Shown piece by piece: positions 10,603 to 54,730 of a stretch of 64,000 nt of DNA. The DNA is taken from contig CADACQ010000009.1 of assembly GCA_902786465.1 (NCBI GenBank), positions 3,339-67,338 on the forward strand, written 5' to 3'. Each line of letters opens with the position of its first letter. Positions within the stretch are counted from its first letter, which is position 1. The notes under the pieces are model-generated. The model was not told where the DNA came from. It searched no databases and worked only from the letters and a program-made list of their open reading frames with translations. A program made the translations under genes and the position numbers. This stretch comes from an uncultured Eubacteriales bacterium. Lineage in GTDB: Bacteria > Bacillota > Clostridia > Christensenellales > CAG-138.

Positions 10603-10654
10603 GACAATACTTCGGGCACGATGGCCCGACGGTTCACTCAATCCCAGAAGTGTA

Positions 10655-10815
10655 CATGTTCAAACAGGTCTCCCGGCTTGGGTTCCTCCTACTCGAGCCC
10701 CTTCCCGCCCCCTGAGGAACAGTGGGTATGCGCTCTTTCGTCCCCCTTACGGTTACTGGGATAGCTCAGGCTTTCCACCCGATTCCCTCAGCCCCCAAAG
10801 GCCGCTGCTTTCACA
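10655..10815 (-). promoter_or_regulatory. Cobalamin (B12) riboswitch aptamer
   Basis: Minus strand contains GGGAATCGGGTGGAAAGCC, ACCCACTGT and the B12 box AAGCCGGGAGACCTG (plus-strand 10661..10681). It lies upstream of the BtuFCD-like/cob operon. Confidence 0.85.
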
Positions 10816-10843
10816 GATAAGAACACGCTATTCATCTTGAGTC

Positions 10844-23742: not shown

Positions 23743-23942
23743 AGAATTCTCCTTCGTCTCTTCCCGTCGTGCTCTCGGGCGGGGCCCTGGTAAAACCTGG
23801 GATCGCTCCGTCGCAAAAGCAGTGGTAGCATATCACAAAGCCGACGGCAACGCAAGTGCAGGATCGCCCATGAAGCTTTGCTGTGGCCAGCGGCTGCGGC
23901 GGGAGGGGCCCCTCATGGATTTGCGCTCGTGCGTGGTCGGGC

Positions 23943-24042
23943 GGTACCCCCTCAGGGACTCTTCTCGGCCTCGACGGCCTCGGGCAGGGCGCGCTCTGAA
24001 TGTCCACTGGACATCCATTCACTACGCGCCCTTCGAGTCCCT
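23943..24042 (-). repeat. tRNA-flanking structured element, copy K1 (arms match the tRNA-Lys(CTT) 3' end)
   Basis: Minus strand: AGGGACTC-GAA-GGGCGCG-TAGTGAA-TGGATGTCC-AGT-GGACATTCA-GAG-CGCGCCC ... GAGTCCCT-GAGGGGGTACC. The last 19 nt equal the tRNA-Lys 3' end (24113..24095). The core is homologous to the copies at 54471 and 54621. Confidence 0.85.
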
Positions 24043-24056
24043 ATCGTGATACCTAT

Positions 24057-24093
24057 AAAGGAAAAGAGATGCCGAATGGCATCTCTTTTCCTT
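24057..24093 (-). terminator. Terminator after the tRNA array
   Basis: A 17-bp perfect stem (AAAGGAAAAGAGATGCC / GGCATCTCTTTTCCTTT) directly after tRNA-Lys(CTT). Confidence 0.8.
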
Positions 24094-24170
24094 TGGTACC
24101 CCCTCAGGGACTCGAACCCTGGACACCCTGATTAAGAGTCAGGTGCTCTAGCCAACTGAGCTAAGGAGGC
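24094..24170 (-). tRNA. tRNA-Lys (anticodon CTT), CCA encoded
   Basis: Hand-folded cloverleaf. Anticodon loop CTCTTAA, T-arm CAGGG-TTCGAGT-CCCTG. Confidence 0.9.
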
Positions 24171-24265: not shown

Positions 24266-24293
24266 ATTATAACAAAATTCTGCCGGTTGTCAA
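24266..24293 (-). promoter_or_regulatory. Internal promoter in the tRNA array, upstream of tRNA-Gly(GCC)
   Basis: Minus strand TTGACA (24293..24288), 16 nt, TATAAT (24271..24266), 13 nt before the tRNA 5' end. Confidence 0.7.
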
Positions 24294-24962: not shown

Positions 24963-24991
24963 ATTTTACCAAGGAATGGAGCTCCTGTCAA
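24963..24991 (-). promoter_or_regulatory. Promoter of the tRNA array
   Basis: Minus strand TTGACA (24991..24986), 17 nt, TAAAAT (24968..24963), about 20 nt upstream of tRNA-Arg. Confidence 0.75.
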
Positions 24992-54335: not shown

Positions 54336-54426
54336 GCAGAGATGGCTGAGCTGGTCTAAGGCGCACGACTGGAAATCGTGTATACTAGGAATAGTATCGA
54401 GGGTTCGAATCCCTCTCTCTGCGCCA
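54336..54426 (+). tRNA. tRNA-Ser (anticodon GGA), long variable arm, CCA encoded
   Basis: GCAGAGA/TCTCTGC acceptor, anticodon loop CTGGAAA, T-arm GAGGG-TTCGAAT-CCCTC, 91 nt. Confidence 0.92.
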
Positions 54427-54462
54427 ACAAAAAGAGCACCCAATTCGGGTGCTCTTTTTGTT
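54427..54462 (+). terminator. Terminator after tRNA-Ser
   Basis: ACAAAAAGAGCACCC-AATT-CGGGTGCTCTTTTTGTT. Confidence 0.85.
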
Positions 54463-54470
54463 ACATCGAA

Positions 54471-54576
54471 TGGAGAGGGATTCGAAGGGCGCAGGAGTGA
54501 ATGGAGCGCCAGTGGCGCTCCAGAGCTGCGCCCCGACCAAGCCCGCAGGCGCGACCGAATCCCTCTCTCTGCGCCA
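54471..54576 (+). repeat. tRNA-flanking structured element, copy S1 (arms match the tRNA-Ser 3' end, ends in GCGCCA)
   Basis: The 5' arm GGAGAGGGATTCG pairs with the 3' arm CGAATCCCTCTCT. Core at 54487..54533: GGGCGCAG-GAGTGAA-TGGAGCGCC-AGT-GGCGCTCCA-GAG-CTGCGCCC. Confidence 0.85.
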
Positions 54577-54612
54577 ACAAAATAGGCACCCTTCATGGGT
54601 GCCTTTTTTGTT
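54577..54612 (+). terminator. Second terminator hairpin (diverged copy of 54427..54462)
   Basis: ACAAAATAGGCACCC-TTCA-TGGGTGCCTTTTTTGTT. Confidence 0.8.
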
Positions 54613-54620
54613 GGCAAAAA

Positions 54621-54730
54621 GCAGAGAGAGGGATTCGAACGGGCAGGTAGTGAATGAGGCTCCAGTGGAGCCTCAGAGCCTGCCCTGACCGAGCGCGTCG
54701 AGCGCGAGAGCGAATCCCTCTCTCTGCGCC
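54621..54730 (+). repeat. tRNA-flanking structured element, copy S2 (17-bp closing helix identical to the tRNA-Ser acceptor and T-stem)
   Basis: GCAGAGAGAGGGATTCG (54621..54637) pairs perfectly with CGAATCCCTCTCTCTGC (54711..54727). Core at 54641..54685: GGGCAGG-TAGTGAA-TGAGGCTCC-AGT-GGAGCCTCA-GAG-CCTGCCC. Confidence 0.85.

Follow-up and report, generated by a model that had tools for sequence, protein, structure and literature searches.

Why should a small non-coding unit carry, at its two ends, the sequence of whichever tRNA gene lies in front of it? The question was raised by a 64,000-nucleotide stretch of DNA (the window) from an uncultured Eubacteriales bacterium of the Christensenellales (contig CADACQ010000009.1). 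In this stretch, an element termed K1 follows tRNA-Lys(CTT) on the minus strand, and two sister units, S1 and S2, follow tRNA-Ser(GGA) on the plus strand. A first-pass annotation made from the sequence had described a constant core with flanks tracking the upstream tRNA, and had argued that neither a fixed-sequence mobile element nor a simple local duplication would produce this. As set out below, the family to which these units belong occurs behind at least 24 tRNA isoacceptors and behind transfer-messenger RNA (tmRNA), far beyond the source genome. We hold with moderate confidence that K1 is a copy of a ~150-bp non-autonomous, structure-defined insertion element of tRNA and tmRNA 3' ends in gut Clostridia.

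Architecture of the K1 Unit and Its Sister Units

The layout originally described for K1, i.e. tRNA, 17-bp hairpin, 14-nt spacer, core, and arms, was recovered with every feature in place (Table 1). tRNA-Lys(CTT) is the second and final gene of a Gly-GCC/Lys-CTT operon on the minus strand, and the terminator hairpin of the K1 unit (T1) begins at the A of its CCA. The 5' arm, AGGGACTC followed by GAA, is the exact complement of TTCGAGTCCCT, the 3' side of the T-loop and T-stem of tRNA-Lys. The 3' arm GAGTCCCTGAGGGGGTACC was identical at 19 of 19 positions to tRNA-Lys positions 57-75, which run from the T-loop to the CC before the final A. Both arms are thus specific for tRNA-Lys as initially proposed. 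The first 8-9 nt of the 3' arm form the 3' strand of the closing helix P1.

Between the arms, the core reads GGGCGCG / TAGTGAA / TGGATGTCC-AGT-GGACATTCA / GAG / CGCGCCC as DNA and GGGCGCG / UAGUGAA / UGGAUGUCC-AGU-GGACAUUCA / GAG / CGCGCCC as RNA. Helix P2 (GGGCGCG/CGCGCCC) leads into an internal loop, (U)AGUGAA opposite GA(G), that resembles a kink-turn (K-turn), and P3 is a 9-bp hairpin with an AGU loop (24017..23997). The wobble pair G24015-T23999 in P3 was confirmed; it is G-C in the orthologous copy L201. On the 3' side of P2 the RNA continues as UGCC-CGAGGCC-GUCGA-GGCCGAG-AA, in which the P4 hairpin (CGAGGCC-GTCGA-GGCCGAG as DNA) has tandem G-A pairs at its base. Abutting the 3' arm lies K0, the degraded 3' tail of an older, 5'-truncated element of subfamily b. 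K1 and K0 are joined at a GTACC/GCACC-like microhomology.

Table 1. Coordinates of the tRNA-associated units in the window
Feature	Position	Strand	Basis or description
Promoter of Gly-Lys operon	24293..24266	minus	near-perfect sigma-70 consensus in promoter scan
tRNA-Lys(CTT)	24094..24170	minus	ARAGORN; Rfam tRNA, 66.3 bits
K1 unit, T1 terminator	24057..24094	minus	perfect 17-bp A-tract/T-tract hairpin, 4-nt loop
K1 unit, 14-nt spacer	24043..24056	minus	sequence
K1 5' arm, AGGGACTC (24042..24035) + GAA	24032..24042	minus	5' strand of P1
K1 conserved core	23986..24031	minus	P2, asymmetric internal loop, P3
K1 J2/4 (GCC), P4, J4/1 (AA)	23962..23985	minus	subfamily a
K1 3' arm, GAGTCCCTGAGGGGGTACC	23943..23961	minus	19-nt copy of tRNA-Lys end
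K0 remnant, GCCCGACCACGCACGAGCGCAAATCC + degenerate tRNA-end copy	~23905..23942	minus	comparison with b-type L187, L163, L162
tRNA-Ser(GGA), host of S1 and S2	54336..54426	plus	ARAGORN
S1 unit, subfamily b	54427..54576	plus	covariance model R1, 92.9 bits
S1 terminator	54427..54461	plus	
S1 5' arm	54472..54484	plus	
S1 core	54487..54533	plus	
S1 3' arm	54556..54576	plus	
S2 unit, subfamily a, like K1	54577..54730	plus	covariance model R1, 89.4 bits
S2 terminator	54577..54611	plus	
S2 5' arm	54621..54637	plus	
S2 core	54641..54685	plus	
S2 P4	54690..54708	plus	
S2 3' arm	54711..54730	plus	

S1 and S2 displayed the same layout with arms fitting tRNA-Ser. The 3' arm of S1 comprises 21 nt and runs through CCA, and P1 of S2 extends to the end of the acceptor strand. 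The pattern AGTGAATG-N5-CCAGTGG-N5-CAGAG matched three times in the window and not at all in 100 shuffles. The covariance-model search that the first-pass annotation had suggested was performed with a model (R1) derived from an alignment of 36 diverse tRNA-type copies (A1). In the window it detected K1 (78.5 bits), S1, and S2 alone, with the next best score at 16.5 bits.

K1 and S1/S2 lie on opposite replicative strands, and no GC-skew switch occurs between these two loci. A strict replicative-strand bias was therefore not seen; rather, the orientation of the element follows that of the tRNA gene.

Distribution and tRNA Matching

The same 20-base core pattern was scanned against 185,579 species genomes, the contig counts being lower bounds. 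It was present on at least 118 contigs, and among the matches listed all derived from gut or rumen Clostridia, with Oscillospiraceae, Acutalibacteraceae, Christensenellales, and Dysosmobacter represented. Confinement of the similarity to a single genome, named at the outset as an outcome that would speak against the proposal, is contradicted by this result.

The context of 129 copies was classified, and an arm was scored as matching when at least 13 of 16 positions were identical to the tRNA. Forty-four copies lay no more than 130 nt downstream of a co-oriented tRNA gene, and for 35 of these the 3' arm matched that tRNA. Eight more were later units of arrays behind a tRNA, also with a matching arm, so that tRNA-linked copies amounted to 52 of the 129, distributed over 24 isoacceptors, with a fitting 3' arm in 43 of the 52. 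T-arm-like arms without a called upstream tRNA were present in 14 copies, a contig end less than 160 nt upstream was met in 11, and the contexts of the other 52 were unrelated to tRNA. Four of the 14 copies without a called tRNA sit behind tmRNA, and their arms match the tmRNA 3' end. These copies (L025, L058, L065, and L091) lie ~70 nt downstream of ssrA, and L091 carries two different units. The notion of a constant core with flanks that track the upstream gene is thus borne out by the 43 matching arms, the 24 isoacceptors, and the four tmRNA copies. Adjacency to tRNA genes, tabulated in the same way, holds for one part of the family but not for the equally large part located elsewhere.

Rfam 15 contains no family for the element; scans with gathering and E-value thresholds yielded tRNAs, a cobalamin riboswitch, and chance-level matches alone. 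No description of the family was found in the literature searched.

Fold, Covariation, and Strand

RNAfold predicted a three-way junction for K1, S1, and S2, with z scores from -5.7 (K1) to -8.5. In alignment A1, 97.9% of the cells in P1, P2, and P3 were paired, and 14 of the 22 pairs had changed on both sides. The covariation score was 0.476 as compared with 0.122 in shuffles, none of which (0 of 500) reached the observed value, and slid partners gave at most 0.067. RNAalifold backed the same three helices. Among 109 distinct cores, P3 was represented by 37 distinct 5-mers, all of them still complementary. The paired substitutions noticed earlier in the stems of the window copies therefore reflect genuine compensatory change, as evident from the covariation of A1 and from RNAalifold.

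Invariant bases reside in the loops, namely the internal loop (U/G)AGUGAA opposite GA(G) and the P3 loop CC-AGU-GG. A K-turn, with its 3-nt bulge and tandem G-A/A-G pairs, can be fitted to the invariant AGU-GA-A opposite GA if one extra A is allowed. The variable P4 distinguishes subfamilies a to e and usually has tandem G-A pairs at its base. Variant cores were encountered at L162, L172, L192, and L091, where the AGUGAA/GAG loop is swapped for GAGCGAAGGCC-ACAGUG-CGGCCUUCGCC or for a longer plain hairpin; arms, P2, and P4 are still kept in these copies.

Read on the tRNA-sense strand, G:U pairs outnumbered A:C combinations at 5:4 in P3, 18:5 in P2, and 10:2 in P1 (about 33 versus 11). This excess favors a fold belonging to the tRNA-sense strand, either as RNA or as single-stranded DNA. 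The same-sense G-U argument originally drawn from K1 thus gains modest support, but the ratio is compatible with RNA as well as with single-stranded DNA of that strand.

Unit Anatomy across Loci

Across loci, the units typically measured 133-173 bp. The distal copy of the tRNA end started at tRNA positions 54-57 and reached through CCA in 29 of 47 cases, the remainder ending 1-12 nt short. Except in tandem arrays, T1, which follows the tRNA, was unrelated to T2, the terminator that follows the distal copy; from this we deduced that the unit brings its own terminator. P1 varied between 7 and 21 bp, and in L066 it ran 3 nt past the tRNA homology. The partner of the 5' arm is thus the 3' arm of the element itself and not strictly the tRNA. 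The initial description of the 5' arm as a tRNA complement is exact for K1, but it does not extend to the L066 arm, which pairs with bases beyond the tRNA homology. An origin of the 5' arm as a minihelix, from the 5' strands of the acceptor and T-stem of the tRNA, was rejected because the arm complements the 3' arm exactly, loop bases included, and because the complement in L066 exceeds the tRNA homology.

Each of the subfamilies a to e was found at many tRNAs, and a single tRNA can host several of them. T1 and the spacer tracked the locus rather than the interior, as seen when K1 was compared with L139, L163, and L192. Interiors assort independently of tRNA identity while T1 and spacer follow the locus, indicating that units recombine.

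Turnover and Probable Insertion at Orthologous Sites

The exact 3' 45 nt of the window tRNA-Lys served as query in a metagenome scan. Eighty-seven loci from many phyla were recovered, most of them without the element, and 11 distinct loci carried elements. Five element loci have a common downstream rsmD promoter flank, identifying them as orthologous tRNA-Lys(CTT) loci, and each was filled differently: a K1-type unit plus a remnant in L201; a b-type unit followed by a 5'-truncated K1-type and a 5'-truncated b-type unit in L187; two b-type units, the distal one degenerate, in L206; a variant core plus a truncated b-type unit in L172; and one degenerate copy in L176. Full copies at these orthologues adjoin the tRNA, and older distal copies are devoid of their 5' half. 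The window conforms to this pattern, with the b-type tail K0 distal to intact K1. Short microhomologies, e.g. GTACC versus GCACC, were observed at unit junctions.

Orthologues of the tRNA-Ser locus were anchored by the neighboring CPBP-protease gene. In a 95%-identical relative (L220) the arms were kept and the interior had decayed, and in a 71% relative (L221) an intact core was interrupted by ~70 nt. With respect to the first-pass argument against a mobile element or local duplication, the observation behind it stands, since the flanks do track the tRNA. The conclusion needs qualification, as the family does behave like an inserting element whose orthologous sites differ and whose older copies decay.

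Relatives Away from tRNA Genes and Linked Genes

The presence of the same core in 52 of 129 copies away from tRNAs indicates that the core is a module common to several repeat families. One group of these relatives ("type 2") resembles miniature inverted-repeat transposable elements (MITEs). These repeats are ~190-330 bp long and bounded by terminal inverted repeats of 19 bp (GGCTCCCCTTGTGTAAGGGG); a genome has several of them, mostly downstream of a co-oriented open reading frame (27 of 36). They were seen at L004, L013, L046, L050, L060, L062, L069, L076, L099, and other loci, with a conserved GCGAAGC mini-hairpin beside the core. In a second group the core is embedded in a conserved intergenic unit of ~290 nt (L006, L014, L080, and L112). 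This unit takes in some 50 nt ahead of the core and reaches about 240 nt past it, and it is possibly a structured RNA of larger size. Neither group matched Rfam.

All-against-all clustering of the open reading frames within 3.5 kb around 118 loci returned only housekeeping families and spurious frames over the element itself. The search for co-occurring protein genes suggested in the beginning thus yielded no conserved partner within that distance. At L003, L038, and L063, the end of a large serine recombinase frame coincides exactly with the tRNA-end copy that lies upstream of the element. There, a larger mobile element appears to have integrated in the same tRNA 3' segment, implying that larger elements do use these sites. 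A phage or plasmid origin of the family was rejected, because 2.9 million viral contigs of IMG/VR contained a single match and a phage collection and PLSDB contained none. The sole IMG/VR match (L124, 4160-4290) is an intergenic type 2 copy on a phage-like fragment.

Comparison with Known Systems

At E. coli tyrT, repeats that include the 3' end of the adjoining tRNA were recognized decades ago. The corresponding Rfam family, RtT (RF00391), has the layout met here, in which a unit 3' of a tRNA finishes with ~19 nt copied from the tRNA end and a 5' arm pairs with these. Like the Clostridial units, RtT immediately follows a tRNA gene in the same orientation and forms tandem units of 130-180 bp (178 bp behind the tRNA-Tyr genes tyrT-tyrV of K-12). 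Each E. coli unit terminates with a repeat of the 19 nt that close the tRNA, CCA included. In the Rfam consensus the 5' arm GgGaaGGAU pairs with the copy AUCCuuCcC and closes a multi-branched fold with a single-stranded acceptor tail. RtT copy number (L119, L223) was three in K-12 and five in strain 50579417, and 1-10 matching places were found across 4738 genomes.

Among Rfam families, RF00391 alone gave an end-to-end alignment with a window unit, albeit with a score of 20.6 bits for S1 (E = 0.045-0.15) against a gathering threshold of 45; K1 and S2 gave no RtT match in these scans. Conversely, R1 run with filters off found no match in the E. coli locus L119 up to E = 10. Homology was therefore rejected in both directions, and the relation to RtT is one of architecture, not of family membership. 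There are several further differences. RtT was seen solely at tRNA-Tyr in the E. coli genomes examined, whereas the Clostridial family covers at least 24 isoacceptors and tmRNA. No intrinsic terminator separates the tRNA from the E. coli unit, whereas every Clostridial unit has its own. The K-12 record annotates a small open reading frame (tpr) within the unit, and the Clostridial core is common to other repeat families. According to its sequence record, E. coli rtT is processed from the tyrT transcript, and the tyrT region has been described as encoding rtT RNA of unknown role (10.1101/2024.07.17.603846).

Genomic islands or prophages integrated by tyrosine integrases in tRNA and tmRNA genes offer a second comparison. 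Islands in such genes are reported to regenerate their target and leave a displaced fragment (PMC4383910). The Clostridial units likewise combine a regenerated gene with a displaced 3' fragment as direct repeat. The target is again the 3' part of the gene, where identity extends from the T-loop to the 3' terminus, and accretion is tandem, the newest copy adjoining the gene. In contrast to islands, the Clostridial insert is ~130 bp in size and contains neither an integrase nor any other gene. One conserved fold serves many targets, an inverted target copy (the 5' arm) pairs with the displaced fragment, and the distal copy is often incomplete at CCA.

MITEs, repetitive extragenic palindromes (REPs), and bacterial interspersed mosaic elements (BIMEs) resemble the family in being non-autonomous, hairpin-rich, present several times per genome, and placed after co-oriented genes or terminators, and the non-tRNA relatives have terminal inverted repeats, of 19 bp, in the manner of MITEs. 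The tRNA-type units differ in that their arms vary with the target and in that they are framed by a 19-23-bp direct repeat instead of fixed ends with short duplications. No parent transposase was found.

Three further candidates were rejected. The helix order is that of a type III hammerhead ribozyme, but the core CUGANGA...GAAA is not conserved and Rfam gave no match; the junctions read (N)GACCGA or CGACCAA, and GAGA, with UGCCCGA in K1. A TnpB/IscB omega RNA was dismissed because no such gene stands beside any copy and the would-be guide is paired in P1. A retroviral-type primer-binding site does not fit either, as the 5' arm misses the terminal CCA of the tRNA and S2 alone reaches position 72.

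Nature of the Element

The reading of K1 as an insertion element of tRNA and tmRNA 3' ends builds on observations made directly: the anatomy, the covariation, the matching to tRNA and tmRNA, the turnover at orthologous sites, the lack of a linked protein gene, and the inverted-repeat relatives in the same genomes. An integrated unit is laid out like a miniature tRNA-gene island. The tRNA is left intact and gains a new terminator, T1. There follow a single-strand fold on the tRNA-sense strand, then a 19-23-nt tRNA copy from T-loop to CCA, and usually a different terminator. The fold is the conserved three-way junction, in which P2 and P3 surround the K-turn-like loop, P4 is variable, and P1 is made of the element-borne 5' arm and the tRNA-end copy. 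New units would enter beside the tRNA and push older ones outward, the displaced units being truncated and decaying, and interiors and tRNA-specific frames would reassort by recombination. Entry may proceed by recombination across the T-loop-to-CCA identity block through a recombinase acting in trans. It might also take place by plain homologous recombination of transferred DNA, in which the tRNA gene and the ~20-nt copy provide the two homology arms. The fold itself may act as RNA, produced by read-through from the strong tRNA promoter and probably bound by protein, or as single-stranded DNA.

A number of points weigh against this reading. About a third of the distal copies stop short of CCA, which does not fit native fragments that were simply displaced. 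No clean empty orthologue was recovered at the tRNA-Lys or the tRNA-Ser locus, only differently filled or decayed sites, so that insertion junctions could not be mapped. Identical tandem units (L010) could arise by local slippage alone, and ORF clustering at the 118 loci linked no recombinase, reverse transcriptase, or transposase to the element. The promoter scan found no promoter between tRNA and element, and for a unit past a strong terminator this means that the RNA may be scarce. Unexplained, too, is the way in which the two arms acquire the specificity of another tRNA; the rewriting may be eased by the fact that T-loops and T-stems vary among tRNAs chiefly through transitions that wobble pairing tolerates. 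Finally, the K-turn-like loop and tandem G-A pairs suit a host-beneficial RNA equally well.

Such an RNA is the alternative that survives best, and we regard it as somewhat unlikely. It would be a tRNA-trailer RNA of the RtT kind, in which the machinery that matures tRNA 3' ends would process a read-through transcript to a stable RNA of ~100-150 nt. The 3' end of this RNA would mimic the acceptor end of the upstream tRNA or tmRNA, and the RNA could act as decoy or regulator of factors recognizing tRNA ends, of RelA-type sensing, or of processing enzymes. Arrays would stem from unequal crossing-over, and the arms would be maintained by selection. The architecture shared with E. coli RtT, annotated as processed and called rtT RNA (10.1101/2024.07.17.603846), is consistent with this, as are the RNA-typical motifs and the excess of G:U over A:C on the sense strand. 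So are the identity of the 3' arm through CCA in 29 of 47 copies although it is paired only in part, the P1 stem and GCC tail of S2 as an exact mimic of the acceptor end, and the fact that the intact copy is the promoter-proximal one only. Yet a strong terminator separates tRNA and element in every Clostridial unit, P1 ranges from 7 to 21 bp, the sole copy at a locus may be degenerate (L176), and many related bacteria with an identical tRNA 3' half have no element. Unrelated interior subfamilies stand in tandem at one tRNA, and the core is also found in inverted-repeat elements away from tRNAs, which argues further against a trailer function.

Transposition as a single-stranded DNA hairpin appears improbable. 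The element would be moved by an HUH/Y1 enzyme in trans, as in IS200/IS605- or REP/RAYT-like systems, or integrate as a folded strand like integron attC or CTX-phi, and the P1 stem would re-create a double-stranded segment of the tRNA gene as recombination site. Starting at position 54, P1 does repeat the sequence of the tRNA gene duplex. Also in favor of this route, the fold is strand-specific and its hairpin and loop are conserved, G-T mismatches are tolerated, the non-tRNA relatives have conserved GCGAAGC mini-hairpins, the element encodes no protein of its own, and tandem arrays occur. However, the opposite replicative strands of K1 and S1/S2 argue against a strict lagging-strand rule (for two loci only), none of the copies had a Y1/HUH or integron-type gene nearby, and the direct repeats of 19-23 bp contrast with 0-7 bp in those systems. 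The K-turn-like loop, moreover, is an RNA motif.

That the units are inert scars, i.e. leftover att sites of deleted prophages or islands with residual phage DNA between them, is very improbable: a regenerated target with displaced fragment is reported for islands (PMC4383910) and larger elements use these sites, as the serine recombinases at L003, L038, and L063 attest, but one ~90-nt covarying fold separates the repeats both at tmRNA and at 24 isoacceptors, the units are of uniform length (typically 133-173 bp), 2.9 million viral contigs gave one match and phage and plasmid collections none, no integrase lies inside the units, and covariation and uniform size already contradict such an origin.

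Returning to the insertion-element reading, a more far-reaching version, which we consider unlikely, is that the family, possibly together with RtT by convergence, is a programmable mobile element with a constant core that is re-armed for each tRNA-like 3' end. If so, insertion would be templated or primed by the tRNA or tmRNA 3' end itself, either by an RNA-mediated route via the CCA end or by a folded single strand whose stem copies the target, and the element would fall outside the classical integrase and transposase models. Independently of this version, the results place beside RtT another family that follows the same logic but is unrelated to it and much larger, and whose hosts are abundant Clostridia of the gut and rumen. 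A one-locus curiosity thereby becomes a general, testable phenomenon. Concrete questions follow: by what means does so short a non-coding unit locate a tRNA gene end, in what way are the arms rewritten, and what is the binding partner of the conserved K-turn-like fold? For annotation pipelines a new model becomes available, and the 3' flanks of tRNA genes in these genomes emerge as dynamic sites.

Other Features of the Window

The window represents core chromosome, with tsaEBD-rimI, the dnaK operon, spoIIIA, and cobalamin genes. The cobalamin riboswitch (83.9 bits, 10646-10827, minus strand) lies upstream of an ABC-type uptake operon and of cobT, cobS, and cobU genes. Near-perfect sigma-70 promoters were located on the minus strand at 24266-24293 for the Gly-Lys pair and at 24963-24991 for a six-tRNA array. 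Both have the form TTGACA-16/17-TATAAT or TAAAAT, each with an upstream TG.

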